Position numbers and translations under genes: made by a program. Below, in pieces: positions 6,099 through 30,177 of a stretch of DNA of 64,000 bases. Numbering within the stretch: position 1 is the first letter of the stretch; each line of letters begins with the position of its first letter. The stretch is taken from the NCBI GenBank assembly GCA_032161105.1, contig JAVHTD010000007.1. One strand, written 5' to 3'. The notes under the pieces were generated by a model that was not told the origin of the DNA, searched no databases, and saw nothing but the letters and a program-made list of their open reading frames with translations. The stretch is from Candidatus Thermosaccharophagus tengchongensis. GTDB taxonomy: Bacteria > Armatimonadota > Fervidibacteria > Fervidibacterales > Thermosaccharophagaceae.

Positions 6099-8063
6099 TT
6101 AAGACTTGCTTCGGGCAACTTCATCAAGTCTTAAGACTTTTCTCACCCTTGGGTTGTCGGCTATAGTCAGGAACAAGTCACTCCTTTTTGCAGCGGATGT
6201 GTATGTGGCGCCTTCAAGCATTGCCTTAGTTGCAACAATGGCGCTAAACATGCTCGCAGCCACGCCTATGCCAAGCGTCAGCGCGAAGCCTTTCACAGGT
6301 CCAGTGCCAAAGTTATACAGAAAAACGCACGCAATCAATGTCGTCACATTGGCATCAAGGATGGCAGTCCATGCCCTATTAAATGCCACTTCAATCGCTG
6401 TGTGCAGTGTCCTTCCGGAGCGTAACTCCTCTTTCAGGCGCTCAAAAATGATGATGTTAGCATCAACAGCCATCCCAAGTGAGAGTAGGAAGCCGATTAC
6501 ACCGGGCAATGTTAATGTGGGTCGCCAACCGGCTATCGGCGCCGAGAATGCCGCAAGTATTAGCAGCCCGTAGAGCCCTAAGGCAATACAGGCAATCATC
6601 CCCGGAAGCCTGTAGTAAGCGACCATGAAAACCACGATCATGATTAGCCCGAGCACCCCAGCAATTGTTGACTTGTGAATGACATCCCTTCCGAGAGTTG
6701 GAGATACAGTCCGATTCCACACGACTGACACGGGCACAGGTAACGAACCAGCATCAAGGAGCACTTTCAAATTGCGCGCCTCCTCAAATGTGAATCTGCC
6801 GGTGATAATGCCGTGAGTGCTTATTCGGTCTCGTATGACCGGTGCGCTGATGCATTCTCTGTCAAACCATATCGCCAAATGCCTCCCGATGTTCCTTCCC
6901 GTCTCATATGCGAACTTCTTTGAGCTTGCCTTTTGCAAGGTGAACGCAACAGCTGGGCGATTCATCTCATCGTATGTGACTCTGCAAGGCGGTTTTAAGT
7001 CCTTGCCGGTTATCACGGTTCTTGACTCAAGGTAAACCTGCATTGGCGGTATCGTCTTACCCTGCTCATCCCTGAAGACGGTTTTACCGCCCTCTTCGCT
7101 CACCTTGTATTTCGTCGGGACAAGTTTCAGTTCAAGGACAGCAGTCCGCCCTATGAGCTTTATTGCCTCAGCGGCGTGCCTCACCCCCGGAAGCTCAACA
7201 ACTACCTTATCCTCGCCATGCCTGTAAATCTGCGCCTCTGCAACACCGTATCTGTCAATGCGCCTTCGTATAATCTCAATCACCGTGTCAACGACATCGG
7301 GCGAGAACGGATATAACTTCGGCTTAGCAGCTTCTCTCACATCACCAAGCACTTGCCTCAGTGCCGCTCCAATTAACCTTTCTTGGCGGTTTAACTCGCT
7401 TTTGCTTTTGGCTTGCGTCAGCACTGTTATGAACTGACCAGTTGCCTCATCAATTGCGAGCTCAAACTCATCAAGTCCCTTTTCCCTGAGAGCCGCAATT
7501 AGCTTGTGGCGGACCGGTATGCGCTTCTCTGGCTCCTTACCTATTGGTTGCGCAAGCTTGTATTGGAACTCAGCGCGCTTGCATTGAAGGACAACCCTTG
7601 CACCACCTTGAAGGTCAAGTCCGAGATTCAGTTTTGGCTTGGGCACAAGTATGTTAACCACACCGAGTTTGAGGAGTGGGCGCATACCGACTTCCCTTTG
7701 GCTGCCCTCAATCAAATGCGCCTTGGGAAATTTCTTCTCCATGAGCTTCAGGATGCGCTCACGCATCTTCAACGCACCGCCTTTGCTTTCAGCCTCTCCC
7801 CTCACTACAAGGATATGCTCGCCAACGAGTTCGGCATCCGTCATCTCAAGCTTCGCATTCATGAGCGCATCCTCAACGGCTTGGTCAAATGCCTGTCCCT
7901 TCGGAGCAAGCTTTGACGCCGGCTCTTCAAGCTCAAAACGCATCGTCAGCTCAACCCTGTATTCCTCAACATGCCCAATGCGTATTGGGCGGAAGGAGAT
8001 GAAGAAGGCAGCGAGCACCACACCGGCAACGAGCGCAAGCCGTTGCTTAACCCTCCTCGGCAT
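6099..8063 (-). CDS. secD: Protein translocase subunit SecD
   Basis: LGLDLQGG, IRRRIDRYGVAE, GSLPVP, GMAVDANIIIFERLKEE; start at 8063 or 8087. Confidence 0.96.
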   Translation of the reverse strand: MPRRVKQRLALVAGVVLAAFFISFRPIRIGHVEEYRVELTMRFELEEPASKLAPKGQAFDQAVEDALMNAKLEMTDAELVGEHILVVRGEAESKGGALKMRERILKLMEKKFPKAHLIEGSQREVGMRPLLKLGVVNILVPKPKLNLGLDLQGGARVVLQCKRAEFQYKLAQPIGKEPEKRIPVRHKLIAALREKGLDEFELAIDEATGQFITVLTQAKSKSELNRQERLIGAALRQVLGDVREAAKPKLYPFSPDVVDTVIEIIRRRIDRYGVAEAQIYRHGEDKVVVELPGVRHAAEAIKLIGRTAVLELKLVPTKYKVSEEGGKTVFRDEQGKTIPPMQVYLESRTVITGKDLKPPCRVTYDEMNRPAVAFTLQKASSKKFAYETGRNIGRHLAIWFDRECISAPVIRDRISTHGIITGRFTFEEARNLKVLLDAGSLPVPVSVVWNRTVSPTLGRDVIHKSTIAGVLGLIMIVVFMVAYYRLPGMIACIALGLYGLLILAAFSAPIAGWRPTLTLPGVIGFLLSLGMAVDANIIIFERLKEELRSGRTLHTAIEVAFNRAWTAILDANVTTLIACVFLYNFGTGPVKGFALTLGIGVAASMFSAIVATKAMLEGATYTSAAKRSDLFLTIADNPRVRKVLRLDEVARSKS

Positions 8064-24193: not shown

Positions 24194-25891
24194 TTAAGGG
24201 GTAACGGTGCCCCTCTTGCCGGCGATGCGAGCCTCAAGACCATCAACGGGCGTCAATTCAGCGTTTAGGAAATCTTGGATAGTTCGGTTAGTCACAACAG
24301 CACCGACTTCCCAAGGGACTTGACTGCCGGCTGGAATGCCCCAACTGTTGTTCCAGCCACTTAAGCCGCTTAGGTCAGGCAAAGTGTAACTTGTTTGCCC
24401 GCCAAGCCAACCGGCGCTCAAGCCGACAAACCAGGAGCGAGAAAATGCCTGAATTGCTTGTCGGGAGCGCTTTTTCGGTCGTGAAAGTTGTGGGTTACTG
24501 ACCAAGCGTTGGCGAAGGTCTATCCCACCACCCTCTCCGAATTGGGCAAAATAGGCTTGCGCTCCTGAATAGGCATCCCAACTCGCAGTGAAGCGGGTAT
24601 AAGGTGTCGTCGCTGCTACCCTCACAGAAGCGTTGCCAAAGGGAGAAGGTAAAGTGACAGAAAGATTGGTCGGCGCTTTGAAGTAGCGCTCAATTAGCCG
24701 AGTGGTGGTGCCAGTCTCAGCTGTTGCGGATAGGTTATGGATATCATTTCCAAACTGCTTGGCAGTTGGAACGGCAGCAAAGGGGAACTGGATGGTTGGA
24801 GGGGGGACTTCAAATCCACCACCAGTCCAGGCTCTGGTTCCGTTGTGGCTTATGAAGGACACCTCACCGCCAGCCAGTTCTCCTGATGAAACGCCATTAA
24901 TGACAGCATTATGGGTTTCAGGCACAAAGGCTTCAGAGCTGTTGAAGTCAATGTTGATGGTTGTGTTCCCTGATATGACAACATCGTGCTGGATGAGCCC
25001 CTTGTTTGGAGTAGGCCCCCCTGGGAACCTAAGTGCAATCAAGTCATAGGTGCCAGGTGGGACTTGCAATGAGTAGGTGTTGGAAGGGGGAAAGACAGAA
25101 GCATATGAGTTACCCATATAGACCACTGCTCCAGCACCTTCAAGACCACCGATCGTTCCCGAGACAGTGACGGTGTTAGCGGAAGGCGCTTCTTCACTAA
25201 CCAAGTTGATTTGCGAAAGTTCGTTGACGGTGGCGTGGATGATGTTGACTTCCACTTCGGTCATCCCATCAGGCCCAGATGGTCTGACAAACACAACCGC
25301 CAATCCATATCTGCCATTGGGGGCACGAATGGTGAGAGTGTATTGAGGCGCAATGGTCGTTTCAATTCGTTGCCAAGGACCGTCTCCATCTTGGAAAGCG
25401 ATAAAGTCAGGTGGAGCCTGTTGCCTGCCTCGGTAAGTCCGGACCACAACCGTCCCTGTAGTGATTCCCGACATCACAATCTCCAAGTTGGTTCGCTGAC
25501 CTTCGGCAAGGGTCGCTGTCCCGCTGCCTGCAGCCACTGTCTGGTTGTTGTTGTCTTTTGCTTCCGCAGTGACACGCTTGAAACCAACAGGTAGGTTAGG
25601 ATAGACCTTCGTTACGACAGTTTGATTTTGGGGTCGAGGGATGGAATCTCGGATGGGGTTTACTAACCCATCGCCTGTAATGGTAACATCTACCTTCACC
25701 GCTGAGGGCGGTATGACACGGGATTTGCTCCAATCAATCGTCAGCACTATTTCTCCTGTGCGATTGCTTCCGATGTTGCTACTACTTTTAGCGCTGGGCG
25801 CTTTGCTACCGCCACACCCAGCGATGATGAACGCCATTGCTGCCACGACCGTCAGGCTAATTCCAATCACCCAAAGGGTTCGCCTTTTCAT
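24194..25891 (-). CDS. Hypothetical beta-rich lipoprotein (565 aa)
   Basis: SD GGAGGTG; basic N-region, hydrophobic core and lipobox IAGC followed by GGS; Thr/Val/Gly-rich beta-strand pattern. Confidence 0.8.
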   Translation of the reverse strand: MKRRTLWVIGISLTVVAAMAFIIAGCGGSKAPSAKSSSNIGSNRTGEIVLTIDWSKSRVIPPSAVKVDVTITGDGLVNPIRDSIPRPQNQTVVTKVYPNLPVGFKRVTAEAKDNNNQTVAAGSGTATLAEGQRTNLEIVMSGITTGTVVVRTYRGRQQAPPDFIAFQDGDGPWQRIETTIAPQYTLTIRAPNGRYGLAVVFVRPSGPDGMTEVEVNIIHATVNELSQINLVSEEAPSANTVTVSGTIGGLEGAGAVVYMGNSYASVFPPSNTYSLQVPPGTYDLIALRFPGGPTPNKGLIQHDVVISGNTTINIDFNSSEAFVPETHNAVINGVSSGELAGGEVSFISHNGTRAWTGGGFEVPPPTIQFPFAAVPTAKQFGNDIHNLSATAETGTTTRLIERYFKAPTNLSVTLPSPFGNASVRVAATTPYTRFTASWDAYSGAQAYFAQFGEGGGIDLRQRLVSNPQLSRPKKRSRQAIQAFSRSWFVGLSAGWLGGQTSYTLPDLSGLSGWNNSWGIPAGSQVPWEVGAVVTNRTIQDFLNAELTPVDGLEARIAGKRGTVTP

Positions 25892-25944
25892 CTCTCTTCA
25901 CCTCCTGAGTTTTTTCGGCATAGGACGCCGTTTTTCACCACCAA

Positions 25945-26008
25945 TGTAGGGCATGGGCTCTGCCCCATGCCGACTTCTTTCGGCGCAAGACAGAGCCTGC
26001 GCCCTACA
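25945..26008. repeat. GTAG-type REP doublet (REPIN-like)
   Basis: Left arm TGTAGGGCATGGGCTCTGCCCCATGCCG; reverse complement of the right arm TGTAGGGCGCAGGCTCTGTCTTGCGCCG; 8-nt spacer. Confidence 0.75.
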
Positions 26009-26019
26009 TAGGATGTCTT

Positions 26020-27672
26020 CTATCGTTGACGAATAGTCAATCCCAATTCGCCCGGCGCACGGACATGAACGGTCACATCCGCTTGGGCTGATTCATAAGT
26101 TGTTTCAGCTTCATAAGTTGTTTCAGCGTGGATGGTGATATCGGTGTTAGGTTGTGTCGCCGTCAGTGTGACCATTGCAATGCCGTTTTGGTCAGTCACT
26201 GCTGAGCCAGCGCTTAACTGTCCGCCTTGACCAGCGGTAATGCTGAATTTGACCGTTGCGCCTCTTATGAATTGCCCAGCATCTGTTTGAACTTGGGCAA
26301 GGATAGTTGCCCGCTCGCCGGCGTTGATGGCGGGCGGAATAGCACTGAGGGCAAGGCGAAGTTGGAAAGTGCCCGTGACGACAAAGCCGGCGGCTCCTTG
26401 AGGGGTCTGGTCAAAAGCGTCAATGTAGTCAGTGCCTAAGGTGTATTTGCCGTCTTGATCCATGTCAATGATGACATCATACCTGCCTGGAACCAAAGGT
26501 GGTATCCACACGGGATAGAGATACTGGTTCCCGCAGGCATACCGCAATATGTCCTGTTCGGGTCGCCCCGTTACATCAACGAGAGGGTCGCCATTCTGCC
26601 AATTGTCCTTGTGCAAGACGATGTATTTGCGAACCATTTGGCAAGGTGCCAGGGGACGCCAAGGAGGGTTAACCCAGACAGTGACGGTCTCGTTATCATT
26701 AAACTGGTCTTTGAATATCCCCTGCTGGTCAGAGGCTAACTCTACCCTTAAATGTTGCACTTGCCTGCCTCTTGATGCCGATTGAACGGTGAAGCCAGTG
26801 CCAATGAAGCCGTTTACGACATCGGTGCCAGCGTCAAATTTACCGTTGCCATTGACATCCACGACGACATCAAAGTCGCCATCAGTCTGCCTTGTTCCTA
26901 ACCTTTGCGCTGACGCCCAAACCGTCGTTCGTGGCAGATTGCCATTAGCGTCGGTTGTGACAGTTTCCGCCCCGCCACTTTCATCTGTCAGTTGGTCTCC
27001 ATTCTGCCAGTTGTCTTTGTCTCTGACGACGAACAGCTTAACTTGCTGATTGGCAGGGAAACCAAAGCCCTCAACCAGAACTGGTTCACCTACAAGGACT
27101 GACCCCATCGGATAGTGGGGTGGATTGCCCGCCAAGATGTTGACAAATCCTTGCCCCGCTTGTCGGCTCCGTGGTGAGTGAAGGCGTGACGACAGAATTT
27201 CAAACCGCAAAAGGGCAGCAAGCAAGCGCCCAGTTGACCCAACGGCTCGGAATTCGTAAGTTCCGCTGGCATCTATCGGTTGACCAGTTCGGGGATCAAC
27301 GCCGATGTCCCAAAGAGGGATAGGTGGGATATTTCCACTCCGGTCAGCGGTTAACTGGAAGATGATAGGTTCTCCAGTCGTTGGGTCAGTAAGAGGGACA
27401 CCGTTACGCAAGACTTGAATCTCCACAAGTTGCCCTGGCGTGAAACCGGAGAAAGAACTAAACACTGTTGGGCGGGCATCAAGGGGCAAATCGGGGACGC
27501 CATTGTTGTTAGTGTCACGAACGGCGCGCCCTGAAGCATCGGTGAGCGGACCGACTTGTGGTGCTGGACCTCCCCCACCACAACCTGAAAAGAAAACCGC
27601 TCCGACAAGCCCTAATGCTGCGAGGAGTATTAACCCACGCTCCCATACAACAACTCTCCGCTTCCGACTCAT
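26020..27672 (-). CDS. Hypothetical lipoprotein with an internal duplicated domain and a C-terminal bacterial Ig-like (Big_1-like) domain
   Basis: SD AAGGAGG; lipobox FSGC followed by GGGG; two KDNWQNGD repeats; C-terminal ATILAQV...GATVKF...TDQNGIAMVTLTA. Confidence 0.8.
   Translation of the reverse strand: MSRKRRVVVWERGLILLAALGLVGAVFFSGCGGGGPAPQVGPLTDASGRAVRDTNNNGVPDLPLDARPTVFSSFSGFTPGQLVEIQVLRNGVPLTDPTTGEPIIFQLTADRSGNIPPIPLWDIGVDPRTGQPIDASGTYEFRAVGSTGRLLAALLRFEILSSRLHSPRSRQAGQGFVNILAGNPPHYPMGSVLVGEPVLVEGFGFPANQQVKLFVVRDKDNWQNGDQLTDESGGAETVTTDANGNLPRTTVWASAQRLGTRQTDGDFDVVVDVNGNGKFDAGTDVVNGFIGTGFTVQSASRGRQVQHLRVELASDQQGIFKDQFNDNETVTVWVNPPWRPLAPCQMVRKYIVLHKDNWQNGDPLVDVTGRPEQDILRYACGNQYLYPVWIPPLVPGRYDVIIDMDQDGKYTLGTDYIDAFDQTPQGAAGFVVTGTFQLRLALSAIPPAINAGERATILAQVQTDAGQFIRGATVKFSITAGQGGQLSAGSAVTDQNGIAMVTLTATQPNTDITIHAETTYEAETTYESAQADVTVHVRAPGELGLTIRQR
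26092..26127. repeat. Exact 18-bp tandem duplication (in-frame AETTYE x2)
   Basis: TTCATAAGTTGTTTCAGC occurs twice in tandem. Confidence 0.95.
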
Positions 27673-27775
27673 CTCACATCGCCTCCTTTTGTGCTCTTTC
27701 ACTACCGCAAGAAGAAGGGAAAACTACAGACCACCATCACCTCCATGCTCTCGTGATGAGCTTGATGCTTAAATA

Positions 27776-27916: not shown

Positions 27917-29446
27917 TTACCTCACATGAACCTCTATCAACCTGTAAGTGGCAAGGGGAATCTTCACATTCTCTCCGTCCTTCGCCTTCCCTATCATCTC
28001 CCCCGTTTCTCTGTCGTAAAGGGAATACTCCTTGTAGCCGAGGAAAAGGCGCAAAGAAATTTCCACCTTTGGAGGCTCTTTCTCCACAGAGTTTATCAGC
28101 CATAGAAGGAATTTTCCCCTGCTTACCCTCGTCAACACACCATATGCCTTCCCCACTTTGAGAGGCAAAGGGCTCTTCTCGGCAAGGGATAGGATGAGGC
28201 TTCTGCTCTCGGGATGAGAGTAGGATTTCCCCTCGTAGTATATCTGCGAACCGTCGCTCTCCAAAACATGGCTAAACCTACCCCGAGGGACTGAAGCGTT
28301 TGTGGGAAAGAGGACGAGAATTCCGTAGGGGGTCTCAGGGATCAAGCCATCTTGGTATATCCTCTCGTTATAGAAGTAGCGGGGGATGTAGGATTCGGGT
28401 GTTTCTTTGAGCCAAGGGGCAGATTCAAAAAGCGCTAAGCCTTTCTGATTGAGAAGTTTGATGGCTATGGGGGAGAAGGAAAGGATTTCGTCCCGAGAAG
28501 GTATCCTTATCTTCCCGCTCCTGTAAAGTTCTATGAAGGGCTTTATCCCTTTCTTGTAGATTGGAGCGAGAGACCAAGTTCCCCATTCCCAAATCATCTG
28601 CATGTGTTCAAATTGGATGTAAGTTGCTCCCAAGCTGGCAGCTTGAAGACACATTCGGAAGATCACATCGGGAGGACAAGTTTGTATTGGACCATATCCT
28701 GCATCACGCCACCACCAATCCTGTGCGGAGAAGCCCCACTCCTTCGCTAAGCCTCCCAACCACATCCCAAGGCAGGCGCCTAAGTTGAGAGTTTCAGCCC
28801 TTGGGTCATTTGTCTCGTGAAGGGGAACTATGACATCCGAGTAATCCTTGTTGAAAAGTTTCGCCCATCCATCAGTGTCCACCATGCTAAAGCCCCACCA
28901 ACCCATCCCTTTCGTCCCATCGCGGGAGTGCTCAGCCCAAACCATCTTCCGCTTGTATTCTCTGCAAAGGTTGCGAAAGGAAATTAGGTCGTTGAGGTAA
29001 TTCCATCCGTGACCAGCGTTGAGGGGTTCACTCAGATAAACCCCCTTGCAAGTGCGGGGAGCAATCTTGAAAACTTTCTCACAAGTTGAGAGGGTGATCA
29101 ATGGGGGAGTAGGTCCAGCGATTTGAAGGAAGAAGTTGATACCCCTTTCCTCACACCCCTTGGCTATTTCCACTATCTGCTCAGAAGAGCTCCCACCCTT
29201 TTTGACGCCGGGAGCCCCTTCCTCCTCAAAGGCTAAAAGGAGCGCAGGGTTGGGATCGTCTTTTATCTGACTCCACAATCTTGACAAGTAGTCAATGGTT
29301 GCCTCCTTCCAATCCGCTCTTTTGAGTAACCCCAAGTAGCCGGGAGAGTAGATAGAGTAGATGAGATGGAGTTGAGAACTTGTCAAGCCGTTGAGGGAGA
29401 AAAGGACAAGAAGGATCGGAATGAAGAATGGCACATACCCTCTCAT
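27917..29446 (-). CDS. Secreted putative glycoside hydrolase, GH98-like catalytic domain
   Basis: Signal peptide from ATG 29446; motifs GVYLSE, MVWAEH, LGMWLGGLAKEWG...DWWW, GATYIQFEH, IPSRDEI recall GH98 enzymes. Confidence 0.5.
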   Translation of the reverse strand: MRGYVPFFIPILLVLFSLNGLTSSQLHLIYSIYSPGYLGLLKRADWKEATIDYLSRLWSQIKDDPNPALLLAFEEEGAPGVKKGGSSSEQIVEIAKGCEERGINFFLQIAGPTPPLITLSTCEKVFKIAPRTCKGVYLSEPLNAGHGWNYLNDLISFRNLCREYKRKMVWAEHSRDGTKGMGWWGFSMVDTDGWAKLFNKDYSDVIVPLHETNDPRAETLNLGACLGMWLGGLAKEWGFSAQDWWWRDAGYGPIQTCPPDVIFRMCLQAASLGATYIQFEHMQMIWEWGTWSLAPIYKKGIKPFIELYRSGKIRIPSRDEILSFSPIAIKLLNQKGLALFESAPWLKETPESYIPRYFYNERIYQDGLIPETPYGILVLFPTNASVPRGRFSHVLESDGSQIYYEGKSYSHPESRSLILSLAEKSPLPLKVGKAYGVLTRVSRGKFLLWLINSVEKEPPKVEISLRLFLGYKEYSLYDRETGEMIGKAKDGENVKIPLATYRLIEVHVR

Positions 29447-30177
29447 CTTTTGTCTACACCTCGACAGCGCCAAGTTACTATTGAAATGCTCAACCAAACC
29501 ACCTTCCATCAATGGCAATGGACAGAAAGACACACAATGGCATAAACGCATTCAATAGCATGTGCCGTTGGAGGCGTAGTCGGCATCAGCCGCAGTTCTC
29601 TGTGGGGTTATCCTAAGCTGTGGGGTAGATTGGGCATGCTTGCTTACCACTTCGCCATTGAGGATGTTAGTCAAGCGTCAACTTGACCCACCCAACTTGC
29701 ATGCCTTACCCACACCGCCAGCCTTTGCCTTGAGCCATTATCAAACTCTTTAGCAGCTCGCTGACCATGAGCGAGCTCAGTGATGTTTCTAAACTCCAAG
29801 ATGGCTCAAAAGGCTAACGCCATTGCTCGCCTCTCGCTCTCCTCTCCATCGCACCGTTCGGTTTTCAATGTCCAATCACAGCCGCCTTTTGATTGCACCA
29901 CAAAGTCGCTTGCTGTTAAGCATTGCCTCGCTCAGCAATCCGTTACACAGTATAACGCACCTTGCGGATTTGACTCCACCTGCCATCCTCAACCAAGTTT
30001 GTTCTTTCACTTCCAGAGTGCCATCGCATTGGCACTATGCATTACAACGCCTTCTACATTCAAGGAACTTAGTAACTTGCCACCCGTGCACTATTGGCAC
30101 CACTGCAAAGTGGAAAGCCACCCTATGCCACTACATGAGCGCGATGAGCCAAAATTCTATGCAGCTGCTCAAAGGGG

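Follow-up and report, generated by a model that had tools for sequence, protein, structure and literature searches.

The window analysed here is a stretch of 64,000 nucleotides (nt) from Candidatus Thermosaccharophagus tengchongensis (contig JAVHTD010000007.1), in which two neighboring genes on the minus strand encode the proteins that we call B and A. Our main finding concerns Cys380 of B. In part of the B orthologues the codon at this position is UGA, which on sequence grounds is most likely inserted as selenocysteine (Sec), and B itself looks like the Cys form of an unlisted selenoprotein family. The reading that we favor, and to which alignments and predicted models lend a roughly even chance of being right, is that B and A are paired lipoproteins of the envelope with a reactive centre at the Cys/Sec position and that their Arg-rich loops are sites for an Arg-specific protease. 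An earlier note on this DNA had described the pair as two novel lipoproteins. This holds, as both proteins carry a hydrophobic signal peptide and a lipobox followed by a Gly run, the lipobox Cys is invariant, and the pair is co-conserved in the order B-A.

The Cys380 column and its probable selenocysteine forms

Besides the Cys of the lipobox, Cys380 is the only invariant Cys of B, and it lies in a C-x-N motif. At 37 related loci the codon in this column is TGA in 6 and TGC or TGT in 31, and no other codon was found. B genes that appear to be split carry a single in-frame TGA at the Cys380 column (RYA-C-GNQY in the window versus MRFA-TGA-ANQY). The six TGA codons lie at L001 598-600, L003 4694-4696, L005 7387-7389, L084 2125-2127, L088 401-403, and L089 405-407. 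At all six loci the frame downstream of the TGA stays open for 167 to 169 codons up to the conserved tail of B. Nine of the 35 B-family database proteins end exactly before the Cys380 column. Because gene callers truncate at a recoded TGA, we regard these nine proteins, which are 363 to 384 amino acids (aa) long and lack the Big_1 domain, as artefacts.

A hairpin of 7 to 8 base pairs (bp) with the loop CGUGU is present 13 to 35 nt 3' of the TGA at each of the six loci. The mean free energy (dG) of the hairpin is -9.1 at the six TGA loci versus -4.2 at the 31 Cys loci. We call it SECIS-like (resembling a selenocysteine insertion sequence) by comparison with the usual SECIS geometry. The selB gene scored over the cut-off in four of five genomes and is fragmented in the fifth, and tRNA-Sec was found in all five with scores of 73 to 81 bits. 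In the tree, Sec forms are interspersed among Cys forms within the 17-row clade that includes the window, which corresponds to at least three changes, one of them forced by well-supported branches. It is the combination of the TGA at the Cys380 column, the open frame behind it, the hairpin, and the presence of selB and tRNA-Sec that suggests the assignment of B as the Cys form of an apparent selenoprotein family. As Cys380 is encoded by UGA in some orthologues, the position would mark a redox-active or nucleophilic residue.

The main tRNA-Sec of the window's genome is located at C23:35896-35989 (75.9 bits), and a second, similar hit at C12:43400-43492 scored 50.8 bits, just over the gathering score. 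This second hit could be a tRNA-ReC-like tRNA or a long-arm tRNA. According to the part of the source considered here, tRNA-ReC-like tRNAs have been reported in Armatimonadota (PMC13582414).

None of the NCBIfam selenoprotein models matches B. The main text of a 2026 review of prokaryotic selenoproteomes, as far as it was covered, makes no mention of an Armatimonad, Big_1/immunoglobulin (Ig)-like, macroglobulin, beta-sandwich, periplasmic, or lipoprotein family (PMC13188914), and the covered text of the BSepDB paper makes no mention of an Armatimonad, Ig-like, macroglobulin, or lipoprotein family; the supplements of both may list further families. B and its orthologues resemble the selenoprotein families with Cys homologues described in that main text in having UGA at an invariant Cys, the hairpin, selB, and tRNA-Sec, and differ from them by the beta-sandwich fold, the C/U-x-N motif, and the extracytoplasmic, lipid-anchored state (PMC13188914). 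If the Sec/Cys site is real, this selenoprotein family would thus be unusual in its fold, its place outside the cytoplasm, and its U/C-x-N motif, and gene callers would have a reason not to truncate B-type genes at UGA. One locus, L012, has an in-frame TAG elsewhere in B (6250-7920; codon 189 of the translated stretch). Probably the copy is broken or misassembled, and recoding at this TAG was rejected.

A module common to B and clostripain-family peptidases

The model of B had a mean predicted local distance difference test score (pLDDT) of 76.1 and a predicted template-modelling score (pTM) of 0.68. Its best Foldseek matches were macroglobulin (MG)-domain chains of complement C3 and C5 and of Salmonella alpha-2-macroglobulin, with E values of 1.7e-10 to 2.6e-8 and template-modelling scores (TMq) of at most 0.28. 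By VIA, the comparison of B with macroglobulins gave Z scores of 9 to 10.6 at root-mean-square deviations (rmsd) of 7 to 19. The second of the three MG-like domains, D2, is a Cys-less paralogous repeat of the Cys-bearing D3, and the profile made from the D3 alignment (A3) matches both, D2 at about 208-292 of P0002. The only Pfam or NCBIfam match of B is Big_1 (PF02369; residues 448-523, E 2.6e-11, 43.9 bits versus a cut-off of 34.9). Compared with intimin D00-D0, this domain gave a Z score of 14.8 and an rmsd of 1.8 over 98 aligned residues. The likeness to intimin and invasin concerns B residues 436-540. B differs from these proteins in that it has a lipid anchor and neither a beta-barrel anchor nor a C-type lectin tip, and Big_1 is only one of its five domains. 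In the window's genome, the C-terminal B profile also matched about 30 weak Big_1-like repeats in a 3,966-aa open reading frame (ORF; G000:C14:3-11903, plus strand).

Searching with the A3 profile yielded 693 representatives at E<=0.001 among 1.84 billion proteins. The 145 relatives listed contain 274 domain hits, 76 of them with the Cys. Two residues alone, C380 and N382, distinguish the Cys-type domains across this wide family; the other conserved residues (W, Y-D, and a D-x-x-x-x-G-x-Y-x-x-G-x-D run) are common to Cys-type domains and Cys-less repeats. A search of the ESM Atlas with D3 gave a best score of 0.76, which is uninformative, and sequence searches of the PDB with A, B, and the D3 profile gave nothing below E 0.1.

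We scanned 38 of the 145 listed relatives with Pfam, mostly longer proteins with a Cys-type domain. In 14 of the 38, Peptidase_C11 follows directly after the Cys domain. The other partners were Big_1 (4 proteins), Glucodextran_B/Big_7 (5), and beta-helix/NosD (2), with CBM96, RCC1, and a type IX secretion system (T9SS) tail as single cases, and 11 proteins had no Pfam hit. The peptidases of family C11 (the clostripain family) cut after Arg. The match between B and the C11-fused proteins (MEROPS C11; for example P0084, P0082, and L138:5011-8136) is not limited to D3. Residues ~10-434 of B match their N-termini with E values of 1e-51 to 1e-72, and these proteins share with B the lipobox and Gly run, the D1-D2-D3 module of ~430 residues, and the C-x-N in D3. 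In B, Big_1 and the tail stand in place of the peptidase; Peptidase_C11 (PF03415) gave no hit in A or B, so that only the N-terminal module is in common. One of the fusions, of 1,041 aa (L138:5011-8136), is encoded in an Armatimonadota genome that also holds a B-A pair. The C11-fused proteins have no Arg-Gln loops, and no A-like neighbor accompanies five further module-bearing proteins of the phylum. If the Sec/Cys site is real, a reactive Cys would also be indicated in the N-terminal module, not described before, of many clostripain-like lipoprotein peptidases, which may provide a handle on protease control or targeting.

The window's genome contains two C11 genes without the module, at G000:C18:20867-22261 (minus strand) and G000:C12:48242-51226 (plus strand). 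The first encodes a peptidase of 464 aa with a lipobox-like signal (..PQLGC). Both peptidases are candidate Arg-specific envelope proteases. All five genomes with the pair have a C11 gene versus 3 of 14 control genomes.

The position of the module directly before C11 is that of a prodomain, and this brings up the possibility that B is a protease trap or inhibitor, in the manner of alpha-2-macroglobulin or of a free prodomain. The B loops would then bait Arg-specific C11-type peptidases, the Cys/Sec of C-x-N-Q would capture or block the protease, through a covalent bond or a mixed (selenyl)sulfide to its catalytic Cys, and A would be an accessory or a protected substrate. The complement and alpha-2-macroglobulin chains found by Foldseek fit this idea. 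Bacterial alpha-2-macroglobulins are lipoproteins, as is B, and their thioester motif, C-G-E-Q, resembles the C-G-N-Q of B. Tandem MG-like sandwiches may also be common to B and the bacterial proteins (Salmonella 4u4j; E. coli 4zjh) or C3/C5. The exposed, protease-sensitive-looking loop of B and its Cys in a C-x-x-Q context are a loose analogy. However, the B model is all-beta save for short helices and has no helical thioester (TED) domain, B matches neither A2M nor TED of Pfam nor any other sequence family of alpha-2-macroglobulin, it is a quarter of the size, and the TMq values are low. In the wide family, moreover, position +3 after the Cys is more often E than Q, C and N alone being specific, and the relatives that are fused to C11 have no Arg loops. 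We therefore consider a trap quite improbable.

Arg-Gln loops, possible proteolysis, and the comparison with type V pilins

The motif R[SG]RQ occurs four times in A and B, which together have 1,115 residues. Composition-preserving shuffles of the two proteins gave a mean of 0.033, and none of 200,000 reached four. All of the strings quoted in the earlier note are present (WSKSRVIPP, YRGRQ, and KKRSRQA in A; SPRSRQA, ASRGRQV, and GELGLTIRQR in B). Its remark that the motif recurs in two otherwise unrelated proteins is also borne out, by the shuffles and by a profile-profile comparison of A with B, in which the alignment was confined to the signal peptides.

Not all four motifs are conserved in homologues. 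In B loop 1, between D1 and D2, R170 is invariant and Q171 is conserved in at least 90% of 23 sequences; RQ is found at 28 of 30 loci, and the loop is variable in length. Of 21 sequences aligned at the A loop (475-478), 15 have R-Q in the corresponding column, 5 have a variant rich in Arg, and 1 has no loop. These two motifs are family-wide; YRGRQ of A and B loop 2 are not (Table 1). In the B model, residues 162-172 have pLDDT values below 50 and no secondary structure, and the surroundings of loop 2 have means of ~64-66 over 10-residue blocks. The loops belong to the B-A pairing, as judged from the alignments. In a 78-row alignment, all 12 rows of A proteins paired with B have the Arg-rich insertion ([RK].RQ in 8, Arg-rich variants in 4) and none of the 66 unpaired rows has it, and the Arg loops of B are found in Big_1-type relatives and are absent from C11-fused and other distant relatives.

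The earlier note had also seen in the motifs a lineage-specific processing signal. The part of this claim that stands is that the loops are pair-specific, inter-domain, and predicted to be disordered. A signal common to the lipoproteins of the genome was not found in the search for R[SG]RQ and SR.IP. Over 2,119 crude ORFs, R[SG]RQ was seen 25 times versus 17.7 expected, which is no enrichment, SR.IP was seen 8 times versus 10.9 expected, and R.RQ was found in none of the other 35 candidate lipoproteins. The two family-wide loops have the look expected of a lineage-specific signal for processing or docking, and they offer a simple, testable case of one. A cut between R and Q that yields pyroglutamate was the analogy behind a search of the genome for glutaminyl cyclase (PF05096), which was not found. 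A 219-aa ORF of the same genome (G000:C12:5535-6194, plus strand) has five RSRQ motifs in R/Q/H/L-rich repeats; it probably results from translating a DNA repeat in the wrong frame and is unrelated.

The lack of a genome-wide signal for the Arg-Gln motif would also suit an explanation without proteolysis. Here the role in the envelope would be purely one of redox chemistry or of metal(loid) or sulfur handling, with the thiol of C380 or its Sec counterpart as the site (for peroxide, disulfide/persulfide, or metal), the loops as flexible basic linkers, for example to anionic envelope polymers, and A as a scaffold. The Sec evidence in the B orthologues, from the TGA column and truncated proteins to the hairpin, selB, and tRNA-Sec, speaks for such a role, and Sec/Cys pairs usually mark catalytic redox cysteines, as Fomenko et al. 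are said to have found in 2007. This explanation is nevertheless unlikely, though not negligibly so. The fold of B is neither thioredoxin-like nor another known redox fold, the Cys is single and has no resolving partner, the family-wide R170-Q171 in a loop of variable length goes beyond the needs of a linker, and the loops co-occur strictly with B-A pairing.

In the favored reading, A and B would be cell-envelope lipoproteins made of beta-sandwich domains that act together, and Cys380, in an exposed loop of the third MG-like domain, would be a redox or nucleophilic centre. The lipid-anchored three-domain module at the N-terminus of B is the one that precedes the C11 domain in the paralogous lipoproteins, and Big_1 and the conserved free C-terminal strand stand where these have the peptidase. 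In both proteins the Arg-Gln loops, and in A perhaps also SR|xIPP behind the first strand, may be cut by an Arg-specific envelope protease, or else serve as docking motifs. The protease could be a C11 lipoprotein peptidase encoded elsewhere in the genome, and cutting would detach the distal domains from the lipid-anchored parts or activate the pair. The tail of B and the extra N-terminal domains of A may form the contact between the two proteins.

Several observations weigh against this reading. The window's own B has TGC at codon 380 and is therefore a Cys form, not a Sec form. The TGA codons of the orthologues could be read as Cys by tRNA-ReC-like tRNAs, as the part of the source considered would allow (PMC13582414). 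The conserved P-V-W codons partly determine the core of the hairpin, and the DNA sequences of Sec forms number only six. A classical Cys-His-Asp site in D3 was rejected, since neither His nor Asp residues set the Cys-type domains apart; nor does any His or Asp accompany the Cys throughout the wide family, which speaks against a hydrolase site of the classical Cys-His type. The residue after the cut (P1') differs among the supposed sites, being Q in the loops and V, I, L, F, or Y after R58 of A, and family-wide conservation holds for two of the four Arg-Gln motifs only. As the C11-fused relatives have no Arg loops, the module alone gives no link between the loops and C11, and at 10 loci the C11 genes are not adjacent to the B-A pair. 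A more far-reaching version of the favored reading is rather a long shot. In that version, B would represent an extracytoplasmic selenoprotein family on an MG-like scaffold whose C/U-x-N site, a redox switch or nucleophile, governs Arg-specific, clostripain-type proteolysis, either by the fused C11 domain or at the Arg-Gln loops of the pair, and the product would be a protease-matured surface assembly derived from lipoproteins, with an origin independent of Bacteroidia type V pili.

The earlier note had compared the pair with type V pilins. The model of A (pLDDT 82.1; pTM 0.80) consists of about six beta-sandwiches in a row. Domain 1 (residues 44-131) is FN3-like, with a Z score of ~8, and domain 3 (236-319) is CarboxypepD_reg/transthyretin-like, with a Z score of 8.9 and an rmsd of 2.2 to 2.7 over 75 aligned residues. 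Strand 45-53 is modelled inside domain 1 with a pLDDT of ~75, and the last strand (553-563) is predicted to be integral to its own domain. Residues 46-62 read GEIVLTIDWSKSRVIPP, with the invariant R58 in the loop after strand 45-53. According to the covered part of the source, type V pili are limited to the class Bacteroidia; their pilins are lipoprotein precursors with transthyretin-like sandwiches as N-terminal and C-terminal domains, an anchor strand, and C-terminal donor strands; the Arg cut lies in the beta1-beta2 loop, at Arg46 in FimA and Arg49 in Mfa1; and the pili have stalk, anchor, and accessory subunits (PMC13655056).

A type V pilus-like appendage would be formed if A were cut after the Arg behind its first strand and the GELGLTI of B filled the groove, giving a surface fibre or adhesin. 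The order of lipobox Cys26, strand 45-53, and invariant R58 in A can be set beside Arg46 of FimA and Arg49 of Mfa1, as the covered part of the source gives them (PMC13655056), and R58, which follows the first strand about as far from the lipobox as the pilin Arg site does, makes a fair analogy in position. Further likeness lies in the lipoprotein precursors and the beta-sandwiches, the N-terminal domains of A occur only in B-paired A proteins, and the genomes have Arg-specific clan CD peptidases (C11). A free C-terminal strand is found here in B only. That B ends in an isolated strand, as had been proposed, agrees with its model, in which a conserved tail lies outside the last domain. In 23 sequences G541 is invariant and R538, A539, L543, and R548 are conserved in at least 90%; the tail has no secondary structure, with a mean pLDDT of 46 over residues 541-550 and values below 50 for residues 545-550. 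The resemblance of GELGLTI to GEIVLTI, the first strand of A, is in part upheld. The pattern GE[ILV].[ILV]T[ILV], chosen post hoc, occurs only 4 times in the 2,119 ORFs, and two of these are the A and B strands. Against this, V49 of A is nearly invariant and W54 invariant, as in a permanent core strand, whereas the B column matching V49 has G, N, or Q.

The models speak against a need for strand exchange: both predicted folds are complete without it, strand 45-53 of A lying in domain 1 and Big_1 of B ending at ~540 without the tail. The analogy to type V pilins as such fails on lineage, sequence family, and gene content. P_gingi_FimA (PF06321) and Mfa_like_1 (PF13149) gave no hit in A or B at E<=1 and none in the window's genome, which is 97.4% complete, with a positive control in Bacteroides thetaiotaomicron; a search for gingipain C25 gave no match in the genome nor in the controls and is thus uninformative. 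The solved pilins 3up6, 4qdg, and 3liu compare with A at Z 7.0-7.3, tied with generic FN3 domains. The phylum is Armatimonadota, A has about six domains instead of two and an integral strand at its own C-terminus, and two conserved genes take the place of an operon for stalk, anchor, and tip. The B-A pair does not belong to the type V pili, and a pilus, the weakest of the readings when set against the defining features, is very improbable. For pilus biology the result is negative, as there is no evidence here for type V pili beyond Bacteroidia.

The gene pair and its neighborhood

B and A form a two-gene cassette that is patchy and mostly found in hot-spring Armatimonadota. B lies immediately 5' of A on the same strand at 11 of 12 close loci (L001-L012, with L008 as the exception) and also at L016. 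At the latter, in one uncultured genome (1247-9278), three to four A-like paralogues stand in a row behind B. Database searches at E<=0.001 gave 33 relatives of A and 35 of B. The close homologues with a phylum-level name are all from metagenome-assembled genomes (MAGs) of Armatimonadota; a few rows are labelled 'bacterium' only, and one B-family hit is under a Bathyarchaeia MAG label. The B-type domain was found in 19 of 301 sampled Armatimonadota genomes and in none of 3 other genomes of the window's genus, which points to a patchy accessory cassette. Coordinates of the features are collected in Table 1.

Table 1. Features of the B-A locus, with positions counted in the window
Feature	Position	Strand	Basis or remark
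Gene B	26020-27672	-	550 aa from ATG 27672; lipoprotein, three macroglobulin-like beta-sandwiches D1-D3, Big_1, free tail
B lipobox Cys31 (FSG-C31-GGGG)	27580..27582	-	Invariant, 23 sequences
B loop 1 SPRSRQA, residues 166-172, between D1 and D2	27157..27177	-	R170 invariant; predicted disordered
B loop 2 ASRGRQV, residues 299-305, between D2 and D3	26758..26778	-	R-Q in 10/23, nearer relatives only
B D3, residues 300-436, Cys-bearing beta-sandwich	26365..26775	-	D3 alignment A3, 22 sequences
Codon TGC for B Cys380 (motif A-C-G-N-Q)	26533..26535	-	Column is TGA in 6/37 related loci
B Big_1 (intimin/invasin-type Ig), residues 436-540	26053..26367	-	Pfam and intimin match
B C-terminal tail GELGLTIRQR, residues 541-550	26023..26052	-	Conserved; outside Big_1 fold
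G+C-rich 8-bp hairpin in B-A spacer	25950-25971	.	Sequence
Gene A	24194-25891	-	565 aa (P0001); lipoprotein, ~six beta-sandwich domains
A lipobox Cys26 (IAG-C26-GGS)	25814..25816	-	Invariant, 21 sequences
A first strand GEIVLTIDW and loop SKSRVIPP, residues 46-62	25706..25756	-	W54, R58, I60, P61 invariant (21 sequences)
A YRGRQ, residues 153-157	25421..25435	-	Only R154 conserved; exact motif in 1/21 sequences
A core, residues 161-565	24197..25411	-	Common to stand-alone lipoproteins of Gemmatimonadota, Holophagaceae, Myxococcota, Deinococcota, Roseateles
A disordered insertion, residues 454-482, with KKRSRQA (473-479)	24446..24532	-	pLDDT <50; B-paired A only

Both genes have GGAGG 9 nt before the ATG, and the B ORF has a formal alternative start at GTG 27702. 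The B-A spacer is 128 nt in the window and usually 13 to 25 nt at related loci. As the T-run of the spacer hairpin is on the plus strand, the hairpin is no obvious terminator for A or B. Complex prediction with A (43-565) and B (74-550) scored 0.00 in both of two runs, a result that counts neither for nor against binding.

A scan of A with Pfam and NCBIfam gave no family match. A belongs to a widespread family of lipoproteins in which two N-terminal domains and a disordered, Arg-rich loop were gained solely by the proteins paired with B. The distant relatives of the A core are lipoproteins too and have no adjacent B, and the unpaired A-like proteins have no A domains 1 and 2. In the ESM Atlas the A core found Myxococcota clusters with scores of 0.92 to 0.93, and a Pfam scan of six distant A-like lipoproteins gave nothing over the cut-off.

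The conserved synteny is limited to the B-A pair. No flanking gene family is common to more than 3 of 10 loci, and a conserved third gene beside the pair (protease, sortase, or redox partner) was not found among the 10 loci compared. In the window, the neighbors encode a carrageenase-like protein, a Tat-type Gfo/Idh/MocA oxidoreductase, and a CcmF-like protein. The first of these is the product of the upstream gene (27917-29551, minus strand; 544 aa), which has a lambda-carrageenase middle domain (PF25290, E 9.8e-11) and is not conserved beside the pair. Near-identical pieces of the locus at 24194-27702 (23-36% of sampled words) are present, beyond the likely source run, in hot-spring metagenome runs of several studies.

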